NCBI GenBank assembly: GCA_964572155.1
Contig: CAZNDZ010000001.1
Span: 1,146,786-1,210,785 of the forward strand
Source: an uncultured Planctomycetales bacterium
GTDB lineage: Bacteria; Omnitrophota; Gorgyraeia; Zapsychrales; Fredricksoniimonadaceae
Length of the DNA stretch: 64,000 bases
Direction of reading: 5' to 3'
In this document: positions 4,143-52,787 of the stretch, in pieces
Layout: each line of letters starts with the position of its first letter
Position numbering within the stretch: position 1 is the stretch's first letter
Position numbers and translations under genes: made by a program
The notes under the pieces: generated by a model
Database searches by the model: none
Seen by the model: the letters and a program-made list of their open reading frames with translations, nothing else
Told to the model about the DNA's origin: nothing

Positions 4143-4143
4143 A

Positions 4144-36253: not shown

Positions 36254-36260
36254 GGTAAAA

Positions 36261-37323: not shown

Positions 37324-37568
37324 TGTTAAGCATTGGTAAAACAACCCTCATTGCTCTAGCACTGCACATCATCGTATTTTCATTCATTTGGATTGGTTTT
37401 CCTATCATTCGTGTTAAAGACAATGTGGTGTTTTATTACAGCCAAATGTCATTGCAGGATCCAACAGATGATATTATTTTTAATGATCATATGCCAATCA
37501 AGGCTGGCGGGTCGTCGGATAGTCAGGTTTGGAAGCAATTAAGAATGTTAGATAAGCCTAAGAGGTAG
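37323..37568 (+). CDS. Small membrane-anchored protein of 81 aa with a His-containing TM helix (LIALALHIIVFSFIW), reminiscent of the TonB/TolA signal anchor but lacking the C-terminal domain.
   Basis: TAATG overlap with the exbD stop. Hydrophobic N-terminus. Confidence 0.4.
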   Translation: MLSIGKTTLIALALHIIVFSFIWIGFPIIRVKDNVVFYYSQMSLQDPTDDIIFNDHMPIKAGGSSDSQVWKQLRMLDKPKR

Positions 37569-37795: not shown

Positions 37796-37803
37796 AGGTG
37801 ACC

Positions 37804-38127
37804 ATGAGATTAAAAAGATTGCATAATGATTCAGGGATGGTTTTAGTAACGGTTGTTATGATCGTTTTTGTCATGTCATTATTGCTCACGGCCATTTTAA
37901 GTCAAAACTTGAGTCAAGCATCTGTAACGCAAGCACAAATCGATGAAATTAAAGCGAAACAATTGGCCATTGGGGCATTTTGGAAAGCCCAAGCAGATAT
38001 GACCAATGTTGCTGGTAACCCGACAGCTGTGGCAGCAGAGAATCTAGATGGTAAAACCTTTACTGTGGCAGTTGATCCTCGTCCAGCAAGTTCTGCGGCA
38101 GCTTATACAGTCACCGTTTCATATTAA
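37804..38127 (+). CDS. PilX-like minor pilin / pilus assembly protein with an N-terminal hydrophobic segment (GMVLVTVVMIVFVMSLLLTAIL)
   Basis: AAAGGTG SD before the ATG at 37804. N-terminal domain resembles PilX_N. 108 aa. Confidence 0.45.
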   Translation: MRLKRLHNDSGMVLVTVVMIVFVMSLLLTAILSQNLSQASVTQAQIDEIKAKQLAIGAFWKAQADMTNVAGNPTAVAAENLDGKTFTVAVDPRPASSAAAYTVTVSY

Positions 38128-38189
38128 TATATATAAGATAGTTCAAATGAAGATTGACATTTGCCCTCAGTGGAGGTGTAATATTTCCA

Positions 38190-39722
38190 ATGGCAAGTGG
38201 CAAGCGTATAGGATTCTATTTATCAGAGTCCAAATTCTATTTTGTTGAATCTTCCGATAATAACCTATTGCGGGTTATTGCTTCTTTGCCATTTCTTTCC
38301 GCAGAACAAAATTCTTCAGAAGATGTTCGTTTGATTGCTTCAATTCAAAAAACAATGCGCGAGCAAAACATCAATCAAAATGATGTGCGTTTTGCCATTC
38401 CTCAATCAGAAGTCATCATCCGTTCATTCTTAATCCCTGTGATGAAGCCAAGTGAGCTTAACGCGGTGGTCGATTATGAATTAAGAAAGCATATCCCATT
38501 TGATTTAAAGGAGTTTACGTATACATTTAATACCATAAACGTCGTCGATAATAAGGTAAAGAAGTTAAGGGTTTTGGTGTCTGCTGCCAGACAATTGTTA
38601 TTGGAGCGGCATGAGCAGATTTTAAATCAGGCAAAATTAAATGTCATTGTGAGCGAACCAGCCCCATTTGGTTTGGTCAGGGTATTGTTTGCTAAGAAAG
38701 TTATTAGTCCTTCAGCGCGTTTTGCGCTTGTTCATATAGGGCAAACGGTGGGTCGTATTTTATTTGTGCATGAAGGCATGGTTTTGTTTATCCGTGAATT
38801 TCAACTCAATCAAGGTGACATTCAGACCGATGCCCAACAAGAAGAAAATTTATTCAAGGCCCGTTTTGTCAACGAAATCCAAAACTCATTAGACTTCTTT
38901 ACCCGTGCCCATGAGCAAATGGCTGTGCAACAAATCATTATTTTAAGACAAGGTGATGAGAGGCCCTATGAGCAATGGTTGCAAGATGAAGTTACAATTC
39001 CTAAGAAAGTCGTTGATGTCACCGCATTGATTGGAACTCAGAATCCCGAAGACACGTCAGGTATTTTATACGCTTTTGGGGCATCATTAGCAGATCCAAG
39101 ATCGCCAACTATTTTTAATTTATCGCGTAAAGCTATTAAGAAAGCACCTGCGGTTAGTTTGTTGCCGGATGTTGATTTTAAAGAATATATGACCGCGATC
39201 AAGACAGCGGTTGTTGCGGTTGTTCTGTTGGCTTTGTTGTATTTCTTGTTTGCTTATAAAACATCTGAGTTACAAAAGACAAAAGATAGTTTAAGTTTAC
39301 AACAAGGTAATATGGCTGATCTTGCCACGGAAGATATTCAAAAGAAAGTCGATAAAAATAAAACGCGGTTAAAACAATATCGATCTATCGTAATAAAAAA
39401 TAAGGTCACTGATATCTTTGTAGATATAGGCAAGAGTATTCCTAAGGGTTTGTGGTTGACAAATTTGAATATTCGAAGCTTGGTGACCTCTGTCAAAGAG
39501 GGTGATGTATTAATTGCAAAAAGTGGATGGGAAGTTGCGTTTAATGCGATTGTTTATAACAAAGATCCGAATCAAGAAATACGCATTGTGAATACATTCA
39601 TGAGCAAGTTAAAGAAAGATAAACGCTTGGCGGAATTCTTTAAGAATGTCAGTTTGGTGAGCATGTTTCAACAAGAAATTAATGGTCATAAGGTTGTCTT
39701 AATCAATGTGAAGTGTAATTAA
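38190..39722 (+). CDS. Type IV filament assembly protein: a PilM-like actin-fold cytoplasmic domain fused via one TM helix (AVVAVVLLALLYFLFAY) to a PilN-like periplasmic domain. The architecture is GspL-like.
   Basis: Domain order read from the translation: about 330 aa cytoplasmic, then a TM, then about 150 aa of coiled-coil and periplasmic sequence. Alternative TTG start at 38154. Confidence 0.55.
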   Translation: MASGKRIGFYLSESKFYFVESSDNNLLRVIASLPFLSAEQNSSEDVRLIASIQKTMREQNINQNDVRFAIPQSEVIIRSFLIPVMKPSELNAVVDYELRKHIPFDLKEFTYTFNTINVVDNKVKKLRVLVSAARQLLLERHEQILNQAKLNVIVSEPAPFGLVRVLFAKKVISPSARFALVHIGQTVGRILFVHEGMVLFIREFQLNQGDIQTDAQQEENLFKARFVNEIQNSLDFFTRAHEQMAVQQIIILRQGDERPYEQWLQDEVTIPKKVVDVTALIGTQNPEDTSGILYAFGASLADPRSPTIFNLSRKAIKKAPAVSLLPDVDFKEYMTAIKTAVVAVVLLALLYFLFAYKTSELQKTKDSLSLQQGNMADLATEDIQKKVDKNKTRLKQYRSIVIKNKVTDIFVDIGKSIPKGLWLTNLNIRSLVTSVKEGDVLIAKSGWEVAFNAIVYNKDPNQEIRIVNTFMSKLKKDKRLAEFFKNVSLVSMFQQEINGHKVVLINVKCN

Positions 39723-39724
39723 CC

Positions 39725-40333
39725 ATGTTTGATCTTGAAAAACTAAAGAATTTTGATTATCAAAATATTGACTATAAAAAGTTATTAGAAACGCTTTTGA
39801 CCAAAAAAGATTTATTTGCATCGGTCATTATCGGTGGCGTTGCGCTTGTTTTACTCATAGGTTTGGCCAAGAATTTTTTTAGTCAAACAGCATCCATTAA
39901 TTCAGAAATTTCTTTGTTAAAAACAAAAATCGACGTGATTGCTGATTATGAGTCGAGCCATAAGCAGATCACAAAATTCCTAAAATCTGTTCCGTCGCCG
40001 TTAGACGAGGATTTGTTTTCTACAACTATTGCCGATATGGCTGCGACGAATAATGTGACGATTGTGTCATTTGTGCCGGGTGTAAAAAAAGAAGAAGAGC
40101 TTTCTAATACAATTTCAGCTGCGTTTGAGATTGAGGTTTTGAATTATCAGTCGTTGTTAATGTTTTTAAGTGCCCTTGAGAAAGCGCCACTGGCATTGAG
40201 GGTTGATAATTGTGTTGTAACAAATGCATCAACTCGAAACAGCATGATGGATGATATTAAAAAGAATCAAGACAAAGACCAGCAAACAATTTCAGTTCAT
40301 TTAGATTTAAGTTCTGTTGAGTTGAAAAAATGA
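39725..40333 (+). CDS. pilO: PilO/GspM-like inner-membrane assembly protein
   Basis: Short cytoplasmic N-terminus, one TM (VIIGGVALVLLIGL), then a coiled coil and C-terminal domain. Position after the PilM/N fusion. 202 aa. Confidence 0.5.
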   Translation: MFDLEKLKNFDYQNIDYKKLLETLLTKKDLFASVIIGGVALVLLIGLAKNFFSQTASINSEISLLKTKIDVIADYESSHKQITKFLKSVPSPLDEDLFSTTIADMAATNNVTIVSFVPGVKKEEELSNTISAAFEIEVLNYQSLLMFLSALEKAPLALRVDNCVVTNASTRNSMMDDIKKNQDKDQQTISVHLDLSSVELKK

Positions 40334-40767
40334 TAAAGATATTCTTATATAGCATTTTGTTCTCTACGCTTCTTTTGAGTGGTCGTGTTCAGGCAGAAGA
40401 GGATCGTGCCGTTGATACGCCCTTGGAAGATGATGTGGTTGATTTTCTAAAACTCGAAAATCCATTCTTGTCGCAATTACCTAAACAACAAATAATTAAA
40501 ACACCTGTTGAACAACCGAAACAAACAGATAATAATGTAAATAAGTTATTTAATGGAATACCACCCATTGAGCAAACCCCTGTGCTTTTACCAAACTTTG
40601 ATATTCAAGGTGTGGTATATGGGGTTAAAGATCCACAGGTCATTATCAATGACCAATCGTATGGGCTAAATGAATATGTGTTGGGCGCTCAAATTAAATC
40701 AATTAGTAAAAAAGGCATAACATTCTTATTTGGTGGGAGGGACTTTAGTGTTGCATTGGACAATTAA
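40330..40767 (+). CDS. pilP: PilP-like periplasmic protein with a signal peptide
   Basis: Signal peptide, low-complexity linker, C-terminal beta-domain (IQGVVYGVKDPQVIINDQSYGLNEYVLGAQIKSI). Lies upstream of the secretin. Confidence 0.5.
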   Translation: MIKIFLYSILFSTLLLSGRVQAEEDRAVDTPLEDDVVDFLKLENPFLSQLPKQQIIKTPVEQPKQTDNNVNKLFNGIPPIEQTPVLLPNFDIQGVVYGVKDPQVIINDQSYGLNEYVLGAQIKSISKKGITFLFGGRDFSVALDN

Positions 40768-42271
40768 GATAACGGTGCTGTTTTTATTAATTTTTCTTAT
40801 CCCTAATCAGTTTATTCTGGCAAGTTACGACTTGGCGGATAGCCATTTTATCAATCCTAAATTTTCTAAAAAGATTTCACTCGATTTTAAGAATGCCCCC
40901 TTGACGGAAGTGCTGAAAGTGTTTTCAAAACAAGCAGGCATGAACTTTGTTGCAAAAGTTGATATAAGCGCGATGCGTGTCACGATGTACCTAGACAATG
41001 TGCCTGTTGAAGAAGCGTTGGAGTATGTTTTGAGTTCTAATGATTTACAGTCAGAAGTGTTGACCGATGATAATACTTTTGCTGTTTCAAAGAAAAAAGA
41101 TACAAGTGCCCGAATGGTAACAAAAGTATTTAATCTAAAGCATGCTTCAGTGACCACATCTGCACTAAAAAATACGTTTTCATCATCTTCGTCATCGTCT
41201 TCTTCGTCTTCCTCATCATCTTCATCTGGTTCATCAGATGCTTTTAGTGTTGCATCGTTGGGGGGGATAGTTGATGCGGTTAAGATGGTGCTTACAAAAA
41301 ATGGCAGTTTAGTTGAAGATTCTAGAACTAATAGTTTGGTGATTACGGATTTAGAGAGTCAAATGCCTCTTATAGAAGAGACAATTAATAAGTTGGATGT
41401 TGTTGTTGCCCAAATTCTCATAGACGTAGATATGTTAGATATTTCAAAAGCAACATCAGACTTAATGGGCGCGAAGTGGGGAGATACAATATTTAATTTT
41501 CAAGGTGCGGCTAAGAACTCCGTCTTGCCTTTTAATGAATCAGCAATTTTAAAAAATGGTAAAGCAGATTTAACCTCGACATCTATTGGAACATTAAGCG
41601 ATAATTCAGGGGATAGTCCATATTCTGCAGGTAAGGTTGATTTTACAGGTATGAATGTGATTATGAATTTCTTAAGAACACGTACGGACACCAAGAACCT
41701 CGCTCGTCCAAGAATTCTAACATTGAATAATCAAATGGCTCAAATTCAAGTTTCTGCAAATGAAGCTGTTGGTACTAAAACCAATAATTTCTCAAGTACA
41801 AGTACAACGTCGAGCGTTGAAGCAGAACGTACGCAAACTGGTGTTTTTCTAACGGTGACGCCACAAGCAGATCTAGAAACACGAGAGATATTAATGGCAG
41901 TATATCCAAAAGTCATTCAGTCTCGAACTGGTGCGACGTTTGGTTCAACAACATATAAAGATGCTGAAGAGCGTGGTACAAAATCATTCTTGCGCGTCAA
42001 AGATGGAGAAACAATCATTTTAGGTGGCTTGCTACGTAACGATGATTCAAACACCATTACCAAAGTTCCTTTCTTAGGTGATATTCCTTTTCTAGGAAAT
42101 GCTTTTAAACATAAAAATCTTCAAGGAACAAAACGAGAACTAATTATTTTCTTAACCCCACATATCTTAGATGATTATCGCAGTTATCAAGATCAAATCA
42201 AGATGCATACGCCTCAGTTCCGTTGGGATGAAGTCAACAAAGCCATCGCTGAGATAGAAAAAGAAAACTAA
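40730..42271 (+). CDS. pilQ: Secretin of the PilQ/GspD family. The start is a TTG or GTG codon between 40730 and 40751. Contains a 16-residue poly-Ser tract.
   Basis: C-terminal secretin motifs (ETIILGGLL, VPFLGDIPFLGNAFK, LIIFLTPHIL). Secretin_N-like repeats. 513 aa. Confidence 0.85.
   Translation: MVGGTLVLHWTIKITVLFLLIFLIPNQFILASYDLADSHFINPKFSKKISLDFKNAPLTEVLKVFSKQAGMNFVAKVDISAMRVTMYLDNVPVEEALEYVLSSNDLQSEVLTDDNTFAVSKKKDTSARMVTKVFNLKHASVTTSALKNTFSSSSSSSSSSSSSSSSGSSDAFSVASLGGIVDAVKMVLTKNGSLVEDSRTNSLVITDLESQMPLIEETINKLDVVVAQILIDVDMLDISKATSDLMGAKWGDTIFNFQGAAKNSVLPFNESAILKNGKADLTSTSIGTLSDNSGDSPYSAGKVDFTGMNVIMNFLRTRTDTKNLARPRILTLNNQMAQIQVSANEAVGTKTNNFSSTSTTSSVEAERTQTGVFLTVTPQADLETREILMAVYPKVIQSRTGATFGSTTYKDAEERGTKSFLRVKDGETIILGGLLRNDDSNTITKVPFLGDIPFLGNAFKHKNLQGTKRELIIFLTPHILDDYRSYQDQIKMHTPQFRWDEVNKAIAEIEKEN
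41180..41236 (+). repeat. Serine tract ((TCN)16 GGT TCA TCA) inside the secretin gene.
   Basis: Read directly. Encodes S16-G-SS. Confidence 0.9.
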
Positions 42272-42277
42272 TATTTT

Positions 42278-44008
42278 ATGGCCCGCGCCCGCTTAGGTGA
42301 AATATTAATCAAGCAAGGCTTGGTTACCGAGAAGCAGCTGCAAGAAGCGATCAATGCCCAGAAAATTCAAAAAGCGCGCATTGGTGATGTTTTGCTTAAG
42401 TTAGGCATGATCAAAGAAGAGGATTTGGCAGCGGCGCTCGGTGCTCAGTTGTTAATCCCGTATGTCACCTATATGTCAGGTCTACTTAAGCCCAAGCAGG
42501 GCCAAGGCCTTGAAACTATCATTCCCCACGAGTTTGCTCAAAAAAACATTATCTTACCACTATCACGCAATGGTAATTCTTTAACATGTGCCGTATATGA
42601 TCCATTGGATTACTTGCTCCTTGATAACTTAAAGATTTTAACCAATTGTGAATTAAATCTAGTTATTGCCACTCGCAGCGATTTAGTGAAAGCCATCAAA
42701 GAGTTTTATTTGTTTGATGGTGGTTCTGAGAATAAAGGTGGGTTGTTAGATAAGGCTGTTGAGAGTTCATATGATTTTGATGCAGGAAATCCAGCGCCGA
42801 TAACATCAACATCGTCGGGAGATACTGAGCTTAGCATTGACAGCCTTGTTGCTAAAGCCGAAGAAGCGCCTGTTATTAAGCTAGTTGATTTGATCATTCG
42901 ACAAGCCATCGATGAGAAAGCCAGTGATATTCACATTGAGCCCTTCAAGGATAAAATTGAAATTCGATATCGTATCGACGGTGTTTTATATCAAATCCCA
43001 CCACCGGCAAATCATTTGCATTTACCCATAGTGTCGCGTATCAAAATTCTATCTAAAATGGATATTGCAGAGAAGCGTTTGCCTCAAGATGGTGCTATTT
43101 CAGCAAGACTGGAAGATCGTACGGTAGATTTGCGTGTGTCTACATTGCCCACGGTGTGGGGTGAAAAAGTTGTTTTGCGTATTTTGGATAAAGGTGCAAC
43201 AAAACTAGAACTTAGCCAATTAGGTTTTGATCAAAAACAATTGGGTTTAATTCGCAAAGCCTTGGAGTCTTCTTATGGTTTAGTTTTTGTCACGGGACCA
43301 ACAGGTAGCGGTAAATCAACCACCTTGTATTCAACGCTCAATGAAGTGCTTGACCCAACGAAGAATATCATGACAGCTGAAGATCCTGTTGAATTTAAAA
43401 TCGAAGGAATTAATCAAGTTGGGGTACGCAATGAAATTGGCTTAACCTTTGCAACCGCTCTTAAAGCATTTTTACGTCAAGATCCCGACATCATCATGGT
43501 CGGGGAAGTCCGTGATATTGAGACCGCGCAAATTTGTGTGCGTGCCGCTTTAACAGGTCACTTGGTTCTAAGTACATTACACACCAATGATGCGCCTTCG
43601 GCTGTAACCCGTTTGGTTGACATTGGTGTTCCTTATTATTTATTAACTCCTTCTTTGTTGCTCGTTATTGCGCAACGCTTGGCACGGAAATTATGTTCTA
43701 AATGCAAAGAACCCTACGAAGCTGCCGGCCAAATGGTTGGTGAATACAAGATCAAGGCGGATTTGATTTACAAAGCCAAGGGTTGTGAAGAATGTAATCA
43801 TAGTGGTTATAAGGGGCGTGTTGTTATTTCAGAAGTTATGTCATTAAATGATGAGATTAGGCGTTTAATGGCTCAAAGCGGCGCATATAGTGACATTCGA
43901 GATGCGGCTAGAAAGAACGGCATGGACACTTTATTTGAATCTGGGATGAAAAAAGTTGAAGAAGGTGTAACAAGTCTGGATGAAGTCTTAGGCATTGTTG
44001 CAGATTAG
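42278..44008 (+). CDS. pilB: Type IV filament assembly ATPase (PilB/GspE family)
   Basis: Walker A GPTGSGKSTT, Asp box, His box, tetra-Cys zinc motif (CSKC...CEEC), N-terminal GspE_N-like domain. 576 aa. Confidence 0.9.
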   Translation: MARARLGEILIKQGLVTEKQLQEAINAQKIQKARIGDVLLKLGMIKEEDLAAALGAQLLIPYVTYMSGLLKPKQGQGLETIIPHEFAQKNIILPLSRNGNSLTCAVYDPLDYLLLDNLKILTNCELNLVIATRSDLVKAIKEFYLFDGGSENKGGLLDKAVESSYDFDAGNPAPITSTSSGDTELSIDSLVAKAEEAPVIKLVDLIIRQAIDEKASDIHIEPFKDKIEIRYRIDGVLYQIPPPANHLHLPIVSRIKILSKMDIAEKRLPQDGAISARLEDRTVDLRVSTLPTVWGEKVVLRILDKGATKLELSQLGFDQKQLGLIRKALESSYGLVFVTGPTGSGKSTTLYSTLNEVLDPTKNIMTAEDPVEFKIEGINQVGVRNEIGLTFATALKAFLRQDPDIIMVGEVRDIETAQICVRAALTGHLVLSTLHTNDAPSAVTRLVDIGVPYYLLTPSLLLVIAQRLARKLCSKCKEPYEAAGQMVGEYKIKADLIYKAKGCEECNHSGYKGRVVISEVMSLNDEIRRLMAQSGAYSDIRDAARKNGMDTLFESGMKKVEEGVTSLDEVLGIVAD

Positions 44009-44020
44009 GGGTAAGGCTTT

Positions 44021-45244
44021 ATGCCAATGTTTTCATATGTAGCTAAAGATTCTAGTGGTAAGACCAAGAAAGACATGGTGGAATCTTTAAATGAGCAAAC
44101 CCTCATTGACCGATTGCAAAATGATGGGTATTTTATCATTTCAATTGCACCCGCGATTCAAAAAGAAGCACCAAAATCTGACCAACCAAAAGTTCAAGTA
44201 AGAAAATTCTCGCACAATAACGTTACACTAGAAGATCAGCTTGTTTTTGCCAGACAATTGGCAACCATGTTGGATTCAGGTGTTACGTTGATGCGTTCAT
44301 TAACGGTTATTGTGGATCAGGTGGAAAGTAAGAAGCTTTACGAGATCATCACGGATTTACGGAATAACGTTGAGCAAGGTAAAACGTTAAGTAGTTCTGT
44401 CGCTAAATATCCAAAAGTATTCTCTCAATTTTGGGTTAGTTTGATTGAAGTTGGGGAAGCGTCCGGTACCATGCCGATGGTTTTAGAGAAATTAACACAA
44501 TATACTGAACAGCAAGCCGCATTTAGATCAACCATTGTTTCTGCGCTTGTCTATCCTGGGGTTCTTTTTGTGATTTGTATGGGGGCGATCGTCTTTTTCG
44601 CATTATTTGTGGCGCCACGATTTGAAACAATTTTTACAACCATGCACGTTGAGCTTCCAGGATTAACGGTAGTTTTATTATTTGTTTTTAAGTTTGTAAA
44701 ATCAAATTTTCTCTTAATTATCGGAGCTTTTGTAGGGGCCTACTATTTTATAAAACAGTATTTAAGTACTCATTTGGGTAAGTTAACGTTTGAGCGGATC
44801 ATGTTTAATATGCCTGCTGTCGGTAAGATTTATAAGTTAATCATCGTTGAACGTTTTGCTGCACAAATGGCGATTCTCGTTGATAGTGGGGTACCTATCC
44901 TGTATGCCTTAGAGATCACGGAAAAATTAGTTGAGAATATCACCTGTTCTGTAATCGTGGCTCAAATTCGTGAGGCTGTGCGTGAAGGTAAGCTGTTGGC
45001 TGACCCAATGCAAGAAAGTGGGTTTTTCCCATCTATGGCGGTGCAAATGATCAAAGTAGGGGAAGAAACAGGTCAGCTTGGAAAAATGCTCAAACATGTG
45101 GCTGAATTCTATGAGCGTACAGTCCAAGAGTTTATGAAACGCATTGGTACAATCATTGAGCCAGTCATGCTTGTTTTTATGGGTGGAATCATTGGGACCA
45201 TTGTTTTGGCTATGTTCTTGCCAATGTTTAGTTTAACAGGCTAG
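44021..45244 (+). CDS. pilC: Inner-membrane platform protein (PilC/GspF family)
   Basis: Duplicated GspF domain with three TM segments, 407 aa, follows the ATPase. Confidence 0.85.
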   Translation: MPMFSYVAKDSSGKTKKDMVESLNEQTLIDRLQNDGYFIISIAPAIQKEAPKSDQPKVQVRKFSHNNVTLEDQLVFARQLATMLDSGVTLMRSLTVIVDQVESKKLYEIITDLRNNVEQGKTLSSSVAKYPKVFSQFWVSLIEVGEASGTMPMVLEKLTQYTEQQAAFRSTIVSALVYPGVLFVICMGAIVFFALFVAPRFETIFTTMHVELPGLTVVLLFVFKFVKSNFLLIIGAFVGAYYFIKQYLSTHLGKLTFERIMFNMPAVGKIYKLIIVERFAAQMAILVDSGVPILYALEITEKLVENITCSVIVAQIREAVREGKLLADPMQESGFFPSMAVQMIKVGEETGQLGKMLKHVAEFYERTVQEFMKRIGTIIEPVMLVFMGGIIGTIVLAMFLPMFSLTG

Positions 45245-45456
45245 GGCCAAAGCCCAGCGTAGCCAAAAGTAAAACATTACTGGCGAAGCTGGGTTGCAGA
45301 GGGGCAAAAAATATGTTATATTCGTTGCATAGTAGAAGTAATGATGATATAAAAACATTGTATAAAGGTAAACTATCCGCAAGGGTGGGGCACAAAGCTA
45401 TAGGGCCTGTTGATATAGGACAGGCAGCCAGTTACCAATGGAAAGCTGTAATGTGC

Positions 45457-45498
45457 ATCCATGCTGCGGAAAATAAATAACGCGGGATGGATTTTTTT
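45457..45498 (+). terminator. Terminator-like hairpin (12-bp stem with one mismatch and one G-U, 12-nt loop) followed by T7. It sits inside the 300-nt pilC-pilin spacer, about 50 nt before the pilin ATG.
   Basis: ATCCATGCTGCG ... CGCGGGATGGAT TTTTTTT, read directly. Confidence 0.4.
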
Positions 45499-45545
45499 AT
45501 TTTAAAACACATTTATTCATAACATAACAAAAAAAGGAGAGTTAC

Positions 45546-45992
45546 ATGAAATTAAGTAATAAACGCAATCAAGGGTTTACACTCATAGAAATCATCATCG
45601 TTATTGTCATCTTAGGTATCTTAGCAGCTATTGCCTTGCCAAAATTGACAGAAAACATTGACCGTGGTCGCGCAGCAGAAGCCTTCTCAATCGGTTCCTC
45701 TGTAGCTAAAGCATTTGATCGTTGTTTATCTGTTGAAACAGGTGGTGCAACGCCAAGTTCAACAAATGTGGGTAATTGTAATTCATTTGCTAAAATTAAT
45801 ATGGCAACACCTCCAGCCACTAATTTCACGTATTCTTTAGCTAGCTCTGGTACAACCTTGACATTCGGTGCTGTTGGCGCTTTCACTGGTGCTGCAGCAG
45901 CGGATTCAATCACATTTACATTCGTGGGTGATACAGGTGTTACAACAAGAACCTGCGGTACAGCAGGTAAGTTTGACAAAATGTGTAAATAG
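45546..45992 (+). CDS. pilA: Major type IV pilin / pseudopilin with a class III signal peptide (MKLSNKRNQG|FTLIEIIIVIVILGILAA)
   Basis: Prepilin peptidase site G|FTLIE with Glu+5, hydrophobic N-terminal helix, Ser/Thr/Gly-rich C-terminus. AGGAG SD. Confidence 0.85.
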   Translation: MKLSNKRNQGFTLIEIIIVIVILGILAAIALPKLTENIDRGRAAEAFSIGSSVAKAFDRCLSVETGGATPSSTNVGNCNSFAKINMATPPATNFTYSLASSGTTLTFGAVGAFTGAAAADSITFTFVGDTGVTTRTCGTAGKFDKMCK

Positions 45993-46020
45993 TTGAGTAC
46001 TGTTTCTTTCTTAGTGTGGT

Positions 46021-46055
46021 ACACGGGGCGAGTTTAACTCGCCTCGTGTTGTTTA
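46021..46055 (+). terminator. Hairpin downstream of the major pilin gene (12-bp stem ACACGGGGCGAG / CTCGCCTCGTGT, 5-nt loop) with a weak T-tract. Probably a partial terminator.
   Basis: Read directly. Confidence 0.4.
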
Positions 46056-46079
46056 GAGTGCAATAATCGAGGAGTATGT

Positions 46080-46505
46080 ATGTCTAAAAAGGGTTTTACG
46101 ATCATTGAAGTCATTATCGTTGTTGTCATGTTGGGCATCTTGGCCGCTGTTGCTATACCAAAAATCCTTGCCCCTAATGAAATAGTGATTTCATCTGAAG
46201 GGCAACATACGCTAACTGTTTTGTTAAGTGCTCAAAAAAGATATAAGTTAGAGAATAGTGCGTACACCACAACATTAGACAACCTTGATGTTTCCATAAC
46301 ACCAAAGTATTTTGACACGGTCACGGCATTAGATGGTTCGAGTGCAAAGACAGAAGTGGCGTCGCTTGCACGGATAAGTAATTTGGTATACACGCTGTCT
46401 ATTGGTGCGGAAGGTGCCAATGCAGGGATTATCTATTGTTCTGGTGCGGGTTGTACCTCTATTAAATGTACTAAAGGTGCGGGGAGCAATCAATGCAATC
46501 TATAA
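46080..46505 (+). CDS. Pilin-like protein 2 (MSKKG|FTIIEVIIVVVMLGILAAVAIPKI)
   Basis: Prepilin N-terminal motif and GAGGAG SD. 141 aa. Confidence 0.8.
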   Translation: MSKKGFTIIEVIIVVVMLGILAAVAIPKILAPNEIVISSEGQHTLTVLLSAQKRYKLENSAYTTTLDNLDVSITPKYFDTVTALDGSSAKTEVASLARISNLVYTLSIGAEGANAGIIYCSGAGCTSIKCTKGAGSNQCNL

Positions 46506-46918
46506 AAGCTTTTACAATGATTGAGCTGATCATGGTGGTTGTCATTATAGGTATGATGGCGCTGTTTGCTGTGCCAAATTATAATAAGTCTGTTGGTAAA
46601 ACATACGAGAAAGCGGGATCCAATAATCTATTAATCATGTATTCGGCGCAGAAGATTAAAAAGATTGGCGGGGAAAATTATCAGGCATGTAACAGTACAA
46701 GTACCTGTAATACGAATTTAAATTTGAGTCTTATCGCAAACGGTGTTGATTATTCCTGCACCACAACGGGTGGAGGAACGCCAACGGGCTTTTATTGTTA
46801 TGGGAATCGCTCGGATAATTCATTTAAGTTAAAAATAACAGAAACAGGTGGCACACCATGTTGTTGTACGGCAAATACGTGTCCATCAATCACCACAACT
46901 TGTGCAAGTTGTCCGTAG
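46493..46918 (+). CDS. Pilin-like protein 3 with a cysteine-rich C-terminus (MQSIKA|FTMIELIMVVVIIGMMALFAVP)
   Basis: Prepilin motif with Glu+5. 9 Cys in the last 90 aa, including CCC. 141 aa. Confidence 0.7.
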   Translation: MQSIKAFTMIELIMVVVIIGMMALFAVPNYNKSVGKTYEKAGSNNLLIMYSAQKIKKIGGENYQACNSTSTCNTNLNLSLIANGVDYSCTTTGGGTPTGFYCYGNRSDNSFKLKITETGGTPCCCTANTCPSITTTCASCP

Positions 46919-46925
46919 AAAAAAT

Positions 46926-47288
46926 ATGAACTTAAAGATGAACAATGCTGGTTTTTCTTTAGTTGAAGTCATCGTTGCTTCTGTTATTTTTTCTATTGCT
47001 GTTGTTGGTATTTATGCTTCTTTGTCCTCCGTTAAAGAGCAGTCACAAAATATTAGTGAAGTTGCTTTAGGTGCAGCGCTTTGTGCTCAACAATTTCTTG
47101 AGAGTAAGCGTGCGGCGGTTGATATGCGAGATTGGGGTTCAGGAGGCCAATTGGCCGTTACAGGAAGTGCTCAGAATGCCGCTGATTGCACTCAAACAAC
47201 CGGTGCTACAGCAACCACATATCATTTAACATATCTTATTACGGATGCAGGTAATGCAAGGAAAGCTACGGTTACAGTGACATGGTAA
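46926..47288 (+). CDS. Pilin-like protein 4 (MNLKMNNAG|FSLVEVIVASVIFSIAVVG). Start chosen at 46926, not the ORF-track start at 46848.
   Basis: Prepilin cleavage motif G|FSLVE. The upstream extension overlaps the preceding gene. Confidence 0.7.
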   Translation: MNLKMNNAGFSLVEVIVASVIFSIAVVGIYASLSSVKEQSQNISEVALGAALCAQQFLESKRAAVDMRDWGSGGQLAVTGSAQNAADCTQTTGATATTYHLTYLITDAGNARKATVTVTW

Positions 47289-47872
47289 AAAGTCCAAAAA
47301 TCCATAATGCCAAGGGTATAACGTTAAGTGAGTTGTTGATTTCCGCTGTAATTGTGGGGATTGTGATGTTGGGCGTTGTATCTGCTGATTTTGCCATTCA
47401 GAAATTTTATCGCGACTCTTCATCTGGAGCGGTCTCAGGATTTAATGCGATTGCAATGCTTAATAATATTTCGAACACTGCCTATAGAGCGACAGGGAGT
47501 TTTACAAATTCTTCAGGTATATCAGATCCAGGGATTCTGGTTGATACCAGCATTGCAACAGCCAATGGCGCGAGTGGTGTTGGCGCTAAGACATTTTGTA
47601 TTCGAACGACGGACAATCCTCCATGGCAATGCTATTATAGGGATGATGATGGGTATTTATATTACTGTTCAAAGAATTCAGCGACTATATGCACATTATC
47701 AGATACCAAGGTAAGACTTGAACGATTAACGAGTATGTCCGCATCATTTGTAAGTAATACTAATGTTGGAAGTCAAAGTTGTATCTTTACTATTTCTCTC
47801 ACTGTTCCTGACACAGATTCCACTACTAAAACATATACCGCTAAAATATCACCTCCAAACCATCGGCTATGA
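47282..47872 (+). CDS. Pilin-like protein 5 (MVKSPKIHNAKG|ITLSELLISAVIVGIVMLGVV), a larger minor (pseudo)pilin
   Basis: Prepilin-type N-terminus with Glu+5. 196 aa. Confidence 0.65.
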   Translation: MVKSPKIHNAKGITLSELLISAVIVGIVMLGVVSADFAIQKFYRDSSSGAVSGFNAIAMLNNISNTAYRATGSFTNSSGISDPGILVDTSIATANGASGVGAKTFCIRTTDNPPWQCYYRDDDGYLYYCSKNSATICTLSDTKVRLERLTSMSASFVSNTNVGSQSCIFTISLTVPDTDSTTKTYTAKISPPNHRL

Positions 47873-49278
47873 CAAGTTTTTTTCTGGCATTGTTGATGTT
47901 CTTATCTTTTGTTCTAAATATTTACATGCTTAAAGATGGCCACAATTGGGGGGATGATTTTGCCCAGTACATCATCAATGGTTTTAATTTCATTCAATTA
48001 AAGCCATACATGAGTGGTGTCATGTTGGATCAATCATTAATTTCGTTCCCAGGTTTTAGCCTAATGTTAGCGCCATTCTTAAAAATATGGGGATTAAATT
48101 TTTTGATCCTTAAATGTTTGATGGTGGTGTTTTGGTATGTTGCTGTTTTGGCGATCTATAAAATTTTAAGAGATATGACAAACAAAGATTATGCGTTTTT
48201 GATCGCTGCATTATTATCGTTGTCTTCATTCTTTTTTATCTTTAAGCAGAATATATTGTCGGATGTGCCGTTTTTTTGTCTTGTCTGCATTGCGCTTTAT
48301 CTATTTGAGAAGCATAAATGTTGGAATCTGTTTTTAGTTATTGTATCTTTAGCATTTTGGACGAGACCAGTTGGGTGTTTGCTCTTTTTTGCAGGAGCTA
48401 TTGCCTTGATACAAAGAAAATCTTGGGGGCGGGCGTTTGCAGTACTTGCACTTTTTTTAATTAATTGCGTTGCAATATTGATGGTGATGGGGGTTTCGAA
48501 GGATTATGCCAGTTTAATCCATTTTAATCCTGCGTCGATATTTTATGATGTTAAACATGGGGCAGAAGTATTGTTTTGCGCTTTGTTCATGTTGATTTTA
48601 CCTGCACAAACAGATTTGTCCTTGATGATTGTGATCGGTTTTATCAAAATCATTAAAATCTTATCGGTCTTTATTTTGGCAGGCATTGTTCTCAACGTAT
48701 TATTAAATATATTGGCTAGGCGTTTAACATTTTTAGAATGTTTTGCTTGTTTGTATTTAGTTGTATTCATATATTTTGCATCGCATAGCCAAACGCCACC
48801 AGATGCATTCGCTCGGTTTATGTTGCCTTTACTACCTATTGTGTTCATTCAAATGTATTCTGTGTATAAGTTGAGCATATGGGGACGTCTAAGATTTAAC
48901 CTGTGTTTCATTTTGATTTGGATTTGTTTGATTGTGAATGTTTACAATATCTATTTTAATAGAAACTTTAATGATTCTGTTCTAACAAGAGGCAATGTTG
49001 AAATGATAGAGTGGGTGAAGAATAATGTTAGTATTGATGAGCATTTTATGTTCCGTCGACCAAGGTTTTTAGCTTTAATGACAGGAAGGGTTGGCGCTGC
49101 GCCTCTAGCTTCTTCTCAACAACGAGGCAATTTCGATGAAAGAATTGCGACATTAGGTATCAAATATATTATTCTATTTAAGGAAACAAGTGTGTATCTA
49201 TTGAATCAATTGAAGGATGATGCTCATTTTGAAGTTGTTTGGGAAAATTCAACGTTTAAGGTATTTAAGGTTATTTAA
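47869..49278 (+). CDS. Polytopic membrane glycosyltransferase, GT-C fold (ArnT/PMT-like), 469 aa
   Basis: At least 10 predicted TM helices. Acidic first-loop motif HNWGDDFAQY, as in the DE/DD motif of GT39/GT83 enzymes. Soluble C-terminal domain. Confidence 0.5.
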   Translation: MTSFFLALLMFLSFVLNIYMLKDGHNWGDDFAQYIINGFNFIQLKPYMSGVMLDQSLISFPGFSLMLAPFLKIWGLNFLILKCLMVVFWYVAVLAIYKILRDMTNKDYAFLIAALLSLSSFFFIFKQNILSDVPFFCLVCIALYLFEKHKCWNLFLVIVSLAFWTRPVGCLLFFAGAIALIQRKSWGRAFAVLALFLINCVAILMVMGVSKDYASLIHFNPASIFYDVKHGAEVLFCALFMLILPAQTDLSLMIVIGFIKIIKILSVFILAGIVLNVLLNILARRLTFLECFACLYLVVFIYFASHSQTPPDAFARFMLPLLPIVFIQMYSVYKLSIWGRLRFNLCFILIWICLIVNVYNIYFNRNFNDSVLTRGNVEMIEWVKNNVSIDEHFMFRRPRFLALMTGRVGAAPLASSQQRGNFDERIATLGIKYIILFKETSVYLLNQLKDDAHFEVVWENSTFKVFKVI

Positions 49279-50957
49279 TGCGCGTCAAATGCATCTTATT
49301 TATTTTGCTTTTAGTCACCATCACATATACAAATTCACTTTTCAATGATTTTGTTGGTGATGACAGCGTCCTTTTTGTCTCAAATACTTTTTATAAGTCT
49401 TGGGACAATCTGCATCGATTATTTGAGAGGGGTTATGCATTTGATAGTAGTAAGGTGGATATCAAGTCACAGACAGATTTTGGGAGTGGGAGCGTTGCTT
49501 ATAGACCGGTCGATAATCTAACATACTTTATTGATTATTGGTTATGGGGGATGAAGCCTTTCGGGTTTCATCTTACGAACCTATTGTTGCATTTGTGCAA
49601 CGTTGTACTTGTTTTTTTATTGCTACTACGGCTAGGGGTTTCAACATATGTTGGTTGTTTTGTCGCGCTTTTATTTGGATTACATCCCGTTTTATCTGAA
49701 GCTGTTTGTGCCATTGGATATCGCGCTGATTTATTAGCCGCATTCTTTGTGCTTTTGTCGTTTTATACGTGGATTATCTATACTCAACATCAACGAATGT
49801 TGATGTATTCTTTGTCTCTTTTATTCTTTTTCCTTGCAGTCTTTTCCAAAGAATCAGCCATTGTTTTGCCAGTTTTTATTCTTGCTTATGAAGGCATTGC
49901 GGGCCGTAGATCATGGGTTAGGCAAAGTTTTTTTTGGTTGATTATGATGTTTTATTTGTATGTTTATTTATTTGTTTTTCCGTCTCCGGAACTTCATGTA
50001 AAACGATTATTAGGGCAAGATATTCTTGAACATGTCCATGTGATGTTAAAGATTTTTGTAACGTATATTCAAATGCTTTTATGTCCGTGGCAAACACATC
50101 CCATACCATCGTTATATATCCCTACATTACATAAGAATTTGGCAGAAACTTTACAGATTATATTTCTGATGATCGGGCTAATGAGTATTGTTTTGTTTTT
50201 TAAGAAGCGTAATAAGATTATTTTTCTAATGTTTCTATGGTTTTTGGTTTTTTATATTCCTATTTCTAATCTTGTTTCTATCCCAAGTCCGATAGCTTTA
50301 AGATTTATGTATTTACCGTCTATTGGTTTTATTTGTGCTGTAGCAATATTGTTGCATCAGAGCATTGGCATGATCTCAAAGAGATTCCTAAATTTTTTTA
50401 TTATGTTTATTTTAATCATATGTATGTTTTCTACGATATTGTTGAACACCATTTGGAAATCTTTGCCTGATGTTATGTTAACGTGGTCAAAATATTACAC
50501 TGATTCCTGGAAGGCTGATTTAATGATGGGTCGTTTATATCATAAGAATAAAGACTACAAGAAAGCGCTTGAGTATTATTTTCAGTCTATCCTTAAGGAG
50601 GCAAGAGTGCAAGATGTGAGGATTGATTATTATACAGCTTTAAGCCTTCTTGAATTAGGGCAAAAAGATAGGGCCCAACGTCATTTGGAATTTGTAATAC
50701 ATGCTTGGCCAACTTTCTCAAGAGCTTCTTATGTTTTGGGGGGATTACACAGAGAAAGAAAAGATTTTGAGAAAGCTATAAAATACTATGTTATCGCCGC
50801 TTCGTATGACCCCAAAAGTGTTGGGTATTATGTGCCTTTGATAGATATGTACACTCAGCTGGGAGAGAAGGAAAATATTACGGAACTATTGAATATTGCG
50901 AAAGATTTTCTCACACCTGAAGAATTCCATTCATTAGAAAACAGAAGTTTGTTATAA
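49278..50957 (+). CDS. Polytopic GT-C-like glycosyltransferase with C-terminal TPR repeats (TMTC/PMT_2-TPR architecture), 559 aa
   Basis: First-loop FVGDDSVLF motif, many TM helices, C-terminal TPR units (YKKALEYYFQSI..., FEKAIKYYVIAASYDP). Paralogous to 52788-54260. Confidence 0.5.
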   Translation: MRVKCILFILLLVTITYTNSLFNDFVGDDSVLFVSNTFYKSWDNLHRLFERGYAFDSSKVDIKSQTDFGSGSVAYRPVDNLTYFIDYWLWGMKPFGFHLTNLLLHLCNVVLVFLLLLRLGVSTYVGCFVALLFGLHPVLSEAVCAIGYRADLLAAFFVLLSFYTWIIYTQHQRMLMYSLSLLFFFLAVFSKESAIVLPVFILAYEGIAGRRSWVRQSFFWLIMMFYLYVYLFVFPSPELHVKRLLGQDILEHVHVMLKIFVTYIQMLLCPWQTHPIPSLYIPTLHKNLAETLQIIFLMIGLMSIVLFFKKRNKIIFLMFLWFLVFYIPISNLVSIPSPIALRFMYLPSIGFICAVAILLHQSIGMISKRFLNFFIMFILIICMFSTILLNTIWKSLPDVMLTWSKYYTDSWKADLMMGRLYHKNKDYKKALEYYFQSILKEARVQDVRIDYYTALSLLELGQKDRAQRHLEFVIHAWPTFSRASYVLGGLHRERKDFEKAIKYYVIAASYDPKSVGYYVPLIDMYTQLGEKENITELLNIAKDFLTPEEFHSLENRSLL

Positions 50958-50999
50958 GCATTGAATCTTAGAAGTTAAATCAGTTCTTGGTCAGATTAT

Positions 51000-52787
51000 A
51001 TGTCATATAATAACGACATGATGCAGAAAAAAGATCCTTTTATAACTGTCTTATGGGGTATTTATTTTGTCTATGCGTTTTTATTGTTTTATCACCCCGT
51101 TGAAACAGAAGATGTTTGGTGGCATTTAGCTACGGGTAAATGGATTCTTACGTGTGGACAGATTCCTGCTTTTGATCCATTTCCTTATGGGTCAGAAAAA
51201 ACGCCATGGATATGTCTACATTGGTTAGGAAGTTCTTTCTTATACTTTATTTATAGTATTGGTGATTTATTTGCTTTAAAAGTATTTCGGTCTGTTTTTC
51301 TAGTCTTGGTTTTAATTATTCTTTATTGGAAAACTAAATCTAGGATGCCCATAGGATTGCTTTTTATATTAATGATATTTATAGCCTTTGCTTTAGATAG
51401 TCGTGGATTATTAAGACCAGATATTTTTAACCATTTATTTATTACAATATATTTGATCATTTTCTTTGAGTATTTTCATGATTTGAGATCTAAGCGTTTA
51501 GTGCTTATTCCTTTCCTTGGGTTGCTTTGGTTTAACATACATATGGGAGCTTATATTTATGGCCTTGGTATCATTTGTGCGTTTCTTTTTGTGGCCATTA
51601 TAGAAAGGTCAATTCAGAAAGTTAGAGCATTGATTTGGGTTCTTTTGTTTTCTCTTTTAGCCTTCTTAATTAATCCATATGGCTTAGATGGTCTGCTATA
51701 TCCAGTTAAAGTTTTCTTAATCCCAGAATTCTTTGATTTTTACGCTAAAACTAGCACAACAGGTGAATCTAGGTCTTCCATTGAGTTATTATTTAGTCTG
51801 GAGACCGCATATTATATCCCACTGGCCATCACAAGTATTTGGGCTATCTGGCACTCAAAAAATAAGCAGTTTGCTTTATCAATTTTGTTTTTATTGGGAC
51901 TTTTTGCGTTTATTTCCATGAAGAGGAATTGTGTGTTCTTTGCACTGATGAGTTTCTGTGTAATCTTTTATGGTTTGAGGGATTTTGATGTGTTTGAGCG
52001 GCTCTCTAAAAACAAATATTATAAGATTATTACTAAGGGTATTCTTTGTGCTGTGTTAATTTTTTTATGTTTATCAATATTTAATATTTTTCGCTTAGCT
52101 GGAATTTATGAACAAAAGAAAATTTCTTATTTAACTATTGATGCTAATTTATACCTTGAGAAAGCTATGCTTCAGTTGAAAAGAGCAAATGTATATGGTG
52201 GTGTTTATACGAATGATATAATTGGTAATAAAGTAATCTGGTCAGGTTATCCACATCTAAAGCCATTTTATGATGGGAGGCAATTAGATAATCAGAGATT
52301 TAGAGATTATGTGTCATTGAACTTAAATACGAAGGAGTCTTGGGAAAGAATACAGCAGAAATATGGTTTTAACATAGCAATAATTACTTCTGCAGACATG
52401 GTATTTGATTATTTAAAAACAAGAGAAGATTGGCAGTTAATTGCTTTGTCGGGATACATTTTAATTTATGTGAAGAAGGGAGTTTTTAACTTGCCACAAG
52501 AATTTGATCAATATGAAGAAAAGTTAAATAAAGAAGTGTTTTCTAATAATGAGAGAGATAAGTTGAAGGCCTTGCTTTCTGGTCCGAGGGAAGCAAGATG
52601 GTATGAAAAGTTTGTCATGCAAGATTTTGTGATGATAGACACATATTCAGAAGCGATTGTCTTGTTTAAGCTTTCTTTAAAAGACGCGGGATTAAAGCGT
52701 TTATTGGCAACATTGGAATTTAATAAAGATTATTTGACTGTTCAAAGAGTTAAAGAAGCATTGAAGAGAATGTCCATATTAATATAA
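51000..52787 (+). CDS. Polytopic membrane glycosyltransferase-like protein (GT-C fold), 595 aa
   Basis: Acidic first-loop ETEDVWWHLATGKW, at least 11 TM helices, large C-terminal soluble domain. Confidence 0.45.
   Translation: MSYNNDMMQKKDPFITVLWGIYFVYAFLLFYHPVETEDVWWHLATGKWILTCGQIPAFDPFPYGSEKTPWICLHWLGSSFLYFIYSIGDLFALKVFRSVFLVLVLIILYWKTKSRMPIGLLFILMIFIAFALDSRGLLRPDIFNHLFITIYLIIFFEYFHDLRSKRLVLIPFLGLLWFNIHMGAYIYGLGIICAFLFVAIIERSIQKVRALIWVLLFSLLAFLINPYGLDGLLYPVKVFLIPEFFDFYAKTSTTGESRSSIELLFSLETAYYIPLAITSIWAIWHSKNKQFALSILFLLGLFAFISMKRNCVFFALMSFCVIFYGLRDFDVFERLSKNKYYKIITKGILCAVLIFLCLSIFNIFRLAGIYEQKKISYLTIDANLYLEKAMLQLKRANVYGGVYTNDIIGNKVIWSGYPHLKPFYDGRQLDNQRFRDYVSLNLNTKESWERIQQKYGFNIAIITSADMVFDYLKTREDWQLIALSGYILIYVKKGVFNLPQEFDQYEEKLNKEVFSNNERDKLKALLSGPREARWYEKFVMQDFVMIDTYSEAIVLFKLSLKDAGLKRLLATLEFNKDYLTVQRVKEALKRMSILI

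Follow-up and report, generated by a model that had tools for sequence, protein, structure and literature searches.

In ordinary type IVa pili (T4aP), PilM and PilN are separate proteins, the N-terminal peptide of PilN being gripped by PilM, and GspL of type II secretion systems (T2SS) is regarded as PilM fused with PilN. Bacteria of the phylum Omnitrophota have not been cultured, are mostly ultra-small and may depend on hosts. In a survey of this phylum with TXSScan, T4aP genes were reported for 135 of 141 Velamenicoccia and for most genomes of the other classes, Candidatus Velamenicoccus archaeovorus was stated to express its T4aP genes, and a role in host-cell attachment was proposed (Seymour et al. 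2023, PMC10066038). Here we describe the pilus locus in a 64,000-nt stretch of Omnitrophota DNA (the window), in which 12 tightly packed genes on the + strand (positions 37798-47872) encode the system in a single gene cluster. A sequence-only reading of this stretch had listed a PilX-like protein, a PilM-PilN fusion, PilO-like and PilP-like proteins, a secretin, an ATPase, a platform protein and prepilins, all of which were found on the + strand at the coordinates it gave. It further suggested a possible divergent member of the type IV filament superfamily. The locus is not peculiar to this genome; it is phylum-wide and already catalogued as T4aP by TXSScan (PMC10066038).

Overall, we consider it likely, with a probability of roughly 0.7, that this locus encodes the type IVa-class pilus machine of nearly all Omnitrophota, with PilM and PilN fused in one polypeptide and, in this genome, two layers of input from cyclic di-GMP (c-di-GMP). 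This reading follows from the fusion protein, the PilO-like protein, the secretin, the N-terminal layout of the ATPase and the first pilin, which match T4aP parts. Rather than a hybrid, the locus is best regarded as that of a type IVa-class pilus machine in which PilM and PilN are fused in the style of GspL; apart from the constant fusion and, here, the placement of the pilin genes behind a c-di-GMP riboswitch, the cluster is largely ordinary. Current understanding is not overturned; the system was on record as T4aP before, and its classification is refined.

The PilM-PilN fusion protein

The fusion gene (38190..39722, + strand) encodes 510 amino acids (aa) from the ATG at 38190, or 522 aa from a TTG at 38154. 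Its product matched PilM_2 (PF11104; E = 1.2e-17, 64.3 bits, cut-off 27) and TIGR01175 (E = 1.8e-21), and a fusion profile built from 92 proteins found PilM of Myxococcus (E = 4.6e-25), Thermus (E = 1.5e-18) and also Pseudomonas in the PDB, its C-terminal part giving a weak match to Myxococcus PilN (E = 0.0046). No GspL in the PDB was matched by this profile, and when E. coli GspL and XcpY were compared with the Omnitrophota profile, the E-values (0.43 and 2.4, respectively) amounted to no sequence match. Similarly, the fusion protein showed no match to the GspL Pfam families PF05134 (T2SSL) and PF12693 (GspL_C), both of which were matched strongly by E. coli GspL in the same test.

The AlphaFold2 (AF2) model of the fusion (mean predicted local distance difference test score, pLDDT, 89.1) is a continuous chain with an actin-like domain (residues 1-300), a segment of low order (315-327), a long helix that contains the hydrophobic segment (330-375) and a C-terminal ferredoxin-like domain with the order alpha-beta-beta-alpha-beta-beta (406-509). 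The predicted topology is that of a cytoplasmic PilM domain, a membrane helix and a periplasmic PilN-like domain of ferredoxin type. This resembles GspL (E. coli GspL, P. aeruginosa XcpY, Vibrio EpsL; PDB 1yf5 and 4pht), in which an actin-like domain in the cytoplasm is likewise joined by one membrane helix to a ferredoxin-like domain in the periplasm; the GspL arrangement claimed for the 510-aa protein by the sequence-only reading is therefore borne out by the model and by its conservation. On the other hand, the likeness to GspL in fold came second to that with PilM. The best Foldseek matches of the model were 5eou (P. aeruginosa PilM with PilN residues 1-12; E = 4.7e-19, TM-score 0.64 normalized to the target) and the Thermus PilM-PilN complex 2ych, whereas among the EpsL/GspL cytoplasmic domains 1yf5 (E = 8e-9) stood ten orders of magnitude below PilM and the others were weaker. 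Moreover, the cytoplasmic domain has the size of a full PilM (~300 aa) in the Omnitrophota fusion as compared to ~240 aa in GspL. The fusion has the arrangement of GspL only, and it is built from PilM and PilN sequence.

Just past the PilM domain, residues 309-311 form a conserved [F/L/I]-[N/D]-L motif (F in 69, N or D in 81 and L, F or I in all 92 of the sequences) that resembles the PilM-binding N-terminal peptide of PilN. As residues 301-310 were modeled with high confidence, the model suggests that the motif still docks on PilM, probably in the PilM groove. A covalent link between PilM and the N-terminal peptide of PilN is also found in the engineered chimera 5eou, but this protein was made in the laboratory and includes just 12 residues of PilN, whereas the natural fusion carries the whole of PilN.

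The idea that the fusion is an artefact, i.e., that a frameshift or an assembly error joined two genes, is exceedingly improbable, and no point in its favor was found. Contigs of three separate, independent sequencing runs agree with this DNA at 100% identity over 13-17 kb, which argues against an assembly artefact, and the AF2 model is confident and continuous. In a scan of one genome per species we found 276 relatives of the fusion, nearly all of them labeled Candidatus Omnitrophota, and an exhaustive profile search yielded 477 clusters (50% identity) at E <= 1e-30; the best 150 of these 477 are about 500-556 aa long and match end to end, barring a few shorter, probably truncated entries. 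PilM and PilN are fused in all full-length relatives (498-556 aa), at identities down to 20-27%; in one search, those of 498-534 aa extended to 27% identity. As full-length relatives occur across the phylum, these data indicate that the fusion is a fixed trait of Omnitrophota and not the sequencing frameshift that the sequence-only reading had allowed for. We found no mention of a PilM-PilN fusion in Omnitrophota in the literature searched.

Fusions of PilM/PilN type recur outside Omnitrophota. In the plasmid T2SS of Comamonas odontotermitis and Methylomonas, the proteins at the L position (438 and 362 aa, respectively) carry a PilN Pfam domain and adjoin GspMb, and a Ca. Manganitrophus plasmid encodes a 553-aa "PilM" with PilM_2 at residues 7-341 and ~210 extra residues after it. 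The Omnitrophota fusion profile detected proteins of this type marginally (E-values of 4.7e-10 to 0.03 in a small database). These T2SS loci of subtype b share with the Omnitrophota locus a PilN-domain protein at the L position, a partner of the GspMb/PilO family and a long ATPase, but a genuine GspG is encoded in both of the proteobacterial loci, and an 817-aa GspD in that of Comamonas. On an Allomeiothermus plasmid, the gene before that of PilO encodes a protein of 509 aa that also looks like a PilM/PilN-type fusion. In the records of the other lineages, candidate PilM/PilN-type genes at the L position lie at 15999-17881 (L089), 14780-16470 (L093), 2506-4167 (L098) and 10738-12267 (L095). 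The Omnitrophota case is notable mainly for its phylum-wide fixation: a natural fusion that is fixed in a phylum and still resembles PilM and PilN in sequence shows that such a step is readily taken and stably kept. For structural studies of how the cytoplasmic motor is coupled to the periplasmic ring, it is also a clean subject in a single chain.

Pilus, secretion system or MSH-type machine

Five consecutive prepilin genes of 120-196 codons (45546-47872), each with a class III signal (G/A|F/I-x-x-x-E), follow the platform gene. The first, pil1 (45546..45992, + strand), encodes a putative major pilin of 148 aa (N_methyl, E = 1.9e-10) with conserved Cys60/Cys78 and Cys137/Cys147, including a C-terminal Cys pair as in T4a pilins. 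A profile of 72 pil1 homologs aligned over its full length with T4a major pilins (E-values of 1e-16 to 1e-19; PAK pilin, 5.7e-17; PilE, 7e-17; PilA, 2.6e-18), whereas the match to GspG was confined to the N-terminal helix (residues 12-66, E = 1.4e-10). No GspG was detected in the locus with TIGR01710 (cut-off 88.85), for which the best score was 44.2 bits over model positions 1-68 of 134, pil1 itself reaching 42.1 bits over positions 1-50. The AF2 model of pil1 (pLDDT 93.3) has the pilin fold, with a helix (residues 13-65) and a four-stranded sheet, and the only high-probability Foldseek matches were Acinetobacter PilA, a result that we take as consistent evidence and not as proof.

The secretin gene (40730..42271, + strand) encodes a short PilQ-type protein of 513 aa (Secretin, E = 1.7e-39; STN; Secretin_N, one domain), in which an N0/STN domain, a poly-Ser linker and one N1 domain precede the secretin domain; AMIN domains and N2 or N3 domains were not found in it. 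The PilQ model TIGR02515 aligned with residues 47-480 (model positions 2-427 of 428; 192 bits, cut-off 284), and the GspD model aligned in its C-terminal half only (residues 140-487 to model positions 270-597 of 600; 189 bits, cut-off 351). The best PDB matches were the Neisseria and Vibrio PilQ proteins, over the full length. Judged by its sequence, the secretin has the domain layout of PilQ and not the four-domain (N0-N3) layout of GspD. The linker between N0 and N1 (residues 151-169; 41180-41236) consists of 16 Ser followed by GSS, and the linkers of relatives are other Ser/Gly-rich runs, e.g., SSSSSSGGG and SSSSTGGGGSS.

Upstream of the secretin, a PilO-like protein is encoded (39725..40333, + strand; 202 aa), which as a single sequence gave weak matches to T2SSM_b and GspM (19.2 bits, cut-off 60); a profile of 42 orthologs found PilO of Myxococcus (E = 5.5e-11) and P. 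aeruginosa (E = 4.5e-4). It is followed by a candidate PilP/GspC-HR-like connector (40330..40767, + strand; 145 aa) with an N-terminal signal or anchor and without a Cys for a lipoprotein, for which single-sequence matches were weak (T2SSB, E = 4e-4; GspC, E = 2e-3, 17.6 bits, cut-off 101.6) and those of a profile of 44 orthologs marginal (GspC-HR and GspB, E = 0.05-0.44); we infer its identity from where its gene lies, with PilO on one side and the secretin on the other. The 145-aa protein has no PDZ domain, and a GspC with PDZ or a coiled coil was not found in the locus.

The assembly ATPase (42278..44008, + strand; 576 aa; T2SSE, E = 2e-138) has a PilB/MshE layout. In the PDB it matched PilB of Geobacter (496 bits) and Myxococcus (488 bits) over its full length, and GspE over the core only (404 bits); it scored 630.8 bits on TIGR02538 (cut-off 675.65) and 580.7 bits on TIGR02533 (cut-off 630.25), and a protein search with it gave Omnitrophota-type proteins only. 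For the PilC/GspF-type platform protein (44021..45244, + strand; 407 aa; T2SSF, E = 2.1e-55), a full-length PDB match was obtained with Myxococcus PilC (237 bits).

When compared to the T4aP machines of Myxococcus xanthus (3jc8), Pseudomonas, Thermus and Neisseria, the locus thus provides matches to PilM, PilN, PilO, PilQ, PilB, PilC and the major pilin, has the gene order M-N-O-P-Q and the N0-N1-secretin layout, and includes among its minor pilins a K-type subunit without Glu5. It differs from these machines in that PilM and PilN form one polypeptide instead of separate chains bound through the N-terminal peptide of PilN, in that the secretin has no AMIN domain and the PilP-like protein is neither recognizable as PilP nor a lipoprotein, and in that all parts stand in one locus, with no PilT or PilD within ~84 kb.

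A number of results count against a type IVa assignment. The catalytic core of the ATPase is equidistant from PilB and GspE (48-50% identity) and did not group with PilB in a neighbor-joining tree (375 core columns; 17 Omnitrophota sequences, 13 reference ATPases taken from records of plasmids and of E. coli, with 4 PilT sequences forming the outgroup), in which the deep nodes had bootstrap values of 1.5-47%, i.e., the tree gave no placement. For the platform protein, the score with the GspF model (347 bits) slightly exceeded those with the PilC models (313 bits for Thermus PilC, and 282 bits), the GspF and Thermus PilC scores being below their cut-offs. The PilP-like protein is marginally nearer to the GspC HR domain and GspB than to PilP, and the Foldseek match of pil1 is statistically weak (E = 0.06). 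No T2SSE paralogue, i.e., no second ATPase of PilT type, was found among the open reading frames (ORFs) of at least 150 aa in the window or within 10 kb past either end (~84 kb in all), and none of 44 related loci has a second ATPase within 10 kb. None of the curated equivalog models for PilB, GspE, PilQ, GspD and GspF reached its cut-off in the locus. The last point is not unusual, as hundreds of "generic" type IV filament systems that fall outside strict models have been described (Denise et al. 2019, PMC6668835).

Several of these results would fit a T2SS or a T2SS-like machine, in which a short pseudopilus exports hydrolases or adhesins across the outer membrane, and so would the L-like fusion, the single locus without a nearby PilT, the weak GspM, GspC and T2SSB matches of the O-like and P-like proteins, and the non-canonical T2SS of Comamonas and Methylomonas with their PilN-domain L-like protein, GspMb and long GspE. 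We nevertheless regard such a machine as unlikely. GspG is absent here (44 bits as compared to 88.85, over the N-terminal third to half of the model), whereas the Comamonas, Methylomonas and Nitratiruptor loci have an annotated GspG; the secretin has one N1 domain instead of N0-N3; no PDZ or coiled-coil GspC accompanies it; the matches of the fusion, PilO and the pilin are to T4aP proteins; and the pilins are fast-evolving and duplicated in relatives (pil1 is 52% identical to that of the closest relative, as compared to 90% for the ATPase, i.e., the pilins change faster than the motor). T2SS-like genes have also been reported beside giant genes in Omnitrophota, but the giant-gene locus contains RcpC and therefore represents a different, Tad-like system. 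Of the "mixed T4aP/T2SS" character proposed by the sequence-only reading, the GspL arrangement and the equidistant ATPase core stand, while the parts that can be discriminated (fusion, PilO, secretin and pilin) are all of T4aP type; likewise, its view that no clean assignment could be made is right in that no curated cut-off was reached and fails in that the parts point to a type IVa pilus.

The absence of PilT from the window, which that reading had also reported, extends to the 10-kb flanks, and so does that of a prepilin peptidase (PilD), since no Peptidase_A24 protein was found among the ORFs of at least 150 aa in either region. The supplements of Seymour et al. 2023 (PMC10066038) contain no mention of pilT. 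It is a rather doubtful proposition that the Omnitrophota machine is a distinct, anciently fixed, PilT-less lineage of type IV filaments, in which the fusion would be either the same event as the origin of GspL or an independent repeat of it. If it were true and the event were the same, the fusion would be a surviving intermediate between type IVa pili and T2SS that preserves the pilus-to-secretion step.

A mannose-sensitive haemagglutinin (MSH)-type pilus, a relative of T4aP encoded in a single locus (Aeromonas caviae, record L086; MshE of Vibrio cholerae), was also considered, since the order M/N-O-P-secretin-ATPase-platform-pilins equals mshI-J-K-L-(M-N)-E-G-pilins of the Aeromonas MSH locus, the ATPase carries an MshEN c-di-GMP domain and the Joint Genome Institute (JGI) names one pil1 homolog MshA. 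We judge this assignment very improbable. The secretin scored 132 bits on the MshL model (cut-off 250), and no MshM or MshN is encoded, the secretin gene ending at 42271 and the ATPase gene starting at 42278. The Aeromonas MshE core is only 41.6% identical to that of the ATPase, which makes it the second most distant long ATPase compared, and at the mshI position Aeromonas has separate genes for a PilM-like (291 aa) and a PilN-like (197 aa) protein (L086 2447-3915), of which the Omnitrophota profile barely detected MshI1 and failed to detect MshI2. Moreover, the MshEN domain is also present in PilB and in T2SS ATPases (PMC5013675). Although it is labeled a "plasmid", the 4.9-Mb record of Aeromonas caviae is in fact that of a chromosome.

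The equation of the five class III signal proteins with the pseudopilins GspG-K, as made by the sequence-only reading, can be set aside. The locus has six pilin-like genes, 38 relatives have between 1 and 9 prepilin genes (mode 4) 3' of the platform gene, and four core minor pilins are likewise found in T4aP. The sixth gene, at the start of the cluster, encodes a minor pilin-like protein of PilX/GspK/ComGG type (37798..38127, + strand; 109 aa from a GTG, or 107 aa from the ATG at 37804) that has Gly at -1, is without Glu5 and matched PilX_N (PF14341, E = 1e-4) and the N-termini of ComGG (NF041014, E = 6.5e-6) and GspK (NF037980, E = 5e-5); an ortholog lies directly 5' of the fusion gene in 38 related loci. 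Downstream of pil1, pil2 (46080..46505, + strand; 141 aa; N_methyl 25.8 bits; Pilin_GH, E = 3.6e-5) and the Cys-rich pil3 (46493..46918, + strand; 141 aa; Ala at -1; TIGR02532 22.3 bits, cut-off 16.3) are prepilin genes with orthologs in relatives. They are followed by pil4, a small minor pilin gene of GspI/PilV type (46926..47288, + strand; 120 aa; ORF open from 46848; N_methyl 32.1 bits; weak XpsI, PilV and GspI matches), and by pil5, which encodes a larger minor pilin (47282..47872, + strand; 196 aa; N_methyl 24.4 bits) that is GspJ/PilW-like by size only, had no match in NCBIfam and has orthologs in 20 relatives.

For a type IVa-class machine with these parts, the following working may be proposed. 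The six pilin-like proteins would be inserted in the inner membrane, with pil1 as the major pilin and pil2-pil5 and the PilX-like protein as minor or tip subunits, and a prepilin peptidase encoded elsewhere would trim them. By homology, the PilC-like platform and a PilB-like hexameric ATPase would polymerize the pilins; the cytoplasmic PilM domain of the fusion would hold the ATPase at the membrane, while the membrane helix and the periplasmic PilN-like domain of the fusion would pair with the PilO-like protein. The PilP/HR-like protein would link this ring to N0 of the short PilQ-type secretin, through which the fiber would exit. Such a surface fiber may be used in attachment to surfaces or host cells, and c-di-GMP would act through MshEN on the ATPase and through a riboswitch with an intrinsic terminator before the pilin genes.

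c-di-GMP elements in the ATPase and the pilin leader

Neither of the two candidate c-di-GMP elements of the locus, i.e., the MshEN motif and the riboswitch, was mentioned by the sequence-only reading. The N-terminus of the ATPase (residues 5-57) consists of two 24-residue MshEN motifs, RLGEILIKQGLVTEKQLQEAINAQ and RIGDVLLKLGMIKEEDLAAALGAQ, separated by the 5-residue spacer KIQKA (NF053729, 59.7 bits, above the cut-off of 38), and both motifs agree with the published c-di-GMP-binding consensus (PMC5013675). The ATPase thus carries a canonical tandem MshEN motif, which is predicted to bind c-di-GMP.

The platform gene and pil1 are separated by 300 nt, in which there is, directly upstream of pil1, a c-di-GMP-I (GEMM-I) aptamer (45357..45439, + strand; RF01051, 59.3 bits, gathering score 35, E = 4.5e-9). 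It is followed by a terminator-like hairpin with a U7 tract (45457..45499, + strand; -18.2 kcal/mol, z = -3.57), which is likely to be the expression platform of the riboswitch. Among 42 related loci that cover this junction, three, from related species, have the element at the same place, namely L006 and L007 (both by Rfam) and L022 (66.6 bits with a model not trained on L022), and it was not found in the other 39. The hairpin and U tract are kept in L006 and L007, and in L022 a hairpin and a T-run were seen by eye at the equivalent place. Across the four aptamer sequences, 97.9% of cells were paired, five pairs were compensatory, and none of 500 shuffles reached the observed covariation score.

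An alternative pairing of the aptamer with the 5' arm of the terminator is predicted. This would make the element an OFF switch, while the computed energies leave ON and OFF undecided, the terminator being favored with or without the aptamer (-47.1 as compared to -43.4 kcal/mol). An OFF switch would fit poorly with an ATPase that c-di-GMP activates, which speaks against the proposed double c-di-GMP input, and so does the breadth of RF01051: this family also includes relatives that sense cyclic GMP-AMP (c-GAMP), and we therefore infer the ligand. The GGC variant family RF03167 was rejected, as its score of 52.7 bits is below the gathering score of 59 and, by eye, an A stands where the consensus of the variant has G. 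A 55-aa ORF called by annotation pipelines at ~45313-45480 (L001 12795-12962) overlaps the riboswitch and is probably spurious. Overall, c-di-GMP probably acts on both pilin transcription and the motor, as judged from the two sequence elements.

The arrangement resembles that of Clostridioides difficile, in which a class II c-di-GMP riboswitch lies upstream of pilA1 and c-di-GMP turns pilA1 on (PMC6366702). In both cases a c-di-GMP riboswitch and a terminator stand directly 5' of the major pilin gene, but the element is of class II in C. difficile and of class I (RF01051) here, where it occurs in a diderm of another phylum and in 3 of 42 related loci. No mention of this riboswitch in Omnitrophota was found in the literature searched.

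A perfect 13-bp hairpin (46021..46049, + strand; z = -2.6) lies directly 3' of the pil1 stop codon and is followed by UUGUUU; it may be an attenuator or partial terminator by which the transcript levels of the major and minor pilins are set relative to each other. Consensus scans for sigma-70 promoters and terminators showed no excess over shuffled sequences, and a sigma-54-like TGGC...TTGC in the pil1 leader was dropped because its spacing, judged by eye, is wrong.

Conservation and neighboring genes

Across the phylum, the order of genes hardly varies and is uvrA, a tetratricopeptide repeat (TPR) protein of ~830 aa, usually ExbB/ExbD, PilX, the fusion, O, P, the secretin, the ATPase, the platform, the pilins, a tRNA, RsmE and RecA, and the complete genome of Ca. 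Velamenicoccus archaeovorus (L058) also carries the locus. Counting for each position only those loci long enough to show it, the secretin was found downstream of the fusion in 57 of 57 loci, the ATPase in 44 of 44 and the platform in 40 of 42; upstream, the TPR protein was present in 51 of 57, uvrA in 44 of 49 and ExbB in 35 of 57 loci. The proposed role in host attachment (PMC10066038) is touched by two of our results, i.e., the fixed genomic context of the machine and, in some lineages, its c-di-GMP wiring at the RNA and protein levels, both of which offer testable handles on when Omnitrophota cells make pili.

This context also bears on whether the pilus serves mainly DNA uptake (natural transformation) instead of adhesion or motility. 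With uvrA upstream and recA-recX downstream across the phylum, and with a short secretin that resembles the DNA-uptake porin HofQ (E = 9e-36), such a use can be argued; the T4aP secretins of Thermus and Vibrio also function in DNA uptake. We consider a machine devoted mainly to this purpose quite unlikely, since no comEA, comEC or dprA was seen in the window and the genes on either side are common housekeeping genes whose order is conserved across the phylum, so that their being adjacent is weak evidence. Moreover, retraction is normally required for DNA uptake, and a nearby PilT was not seen.

Upstream of the type IVa-class pilus genes, the region 31017-37568 of the window encodes UvrA, an 813-aa protein with ~10 TPR units of YbgF/CpoB type (TIGR02795, 228 bits), a TolQ-like protein, a TolR/ExbD-like protein and an 81-aa single-helix protein. 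The TPR and ExbB/ExbD proteins were rejected as parts of the machine, as they look like a Tol/CpoB-type set and ExbB is missing in 22 of 57 loci; these genes probably encode an envelope system of Tol type that merely adjoins the machine.

Downstream, four GT-C/PMT_2-like membrane proteins (47869..54260, + strand; PMT_2 and TPR matches, three with C-terminal TPR) are encoded between pil5 and tRNA-Ala(CGC) (54325-54401), the first gene overlapping the pil5 stop codon by 4 nt. The GC content of this block is 0.30-0.35, as compared to about 0.40, and the block is absent from most relatives, in which the pilins are followed straight by the tRNA, RsmE and RecA; PMT-like genes beside pilin genes were also found in L006, L017 and L035. 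These proteins may be pilin glycosyltransferases or the block may be an inserted island, and its membership of the pilus system is uncertain. Near the other end of the window, an ORF of 693 aa (157-2238) gave no Pfam match. Just 5' of the window (L102, L103 and L104) lie genes for NnrS, a cytochrome c nitrite reductase of NrfA/NrfH type, two MFS transporters and Rieske/Fe-S proteins; with its NrfA/NrfH, NnrS and Rieske genes, this Omnitrophota genome looks respiratory and not strongly reduced.

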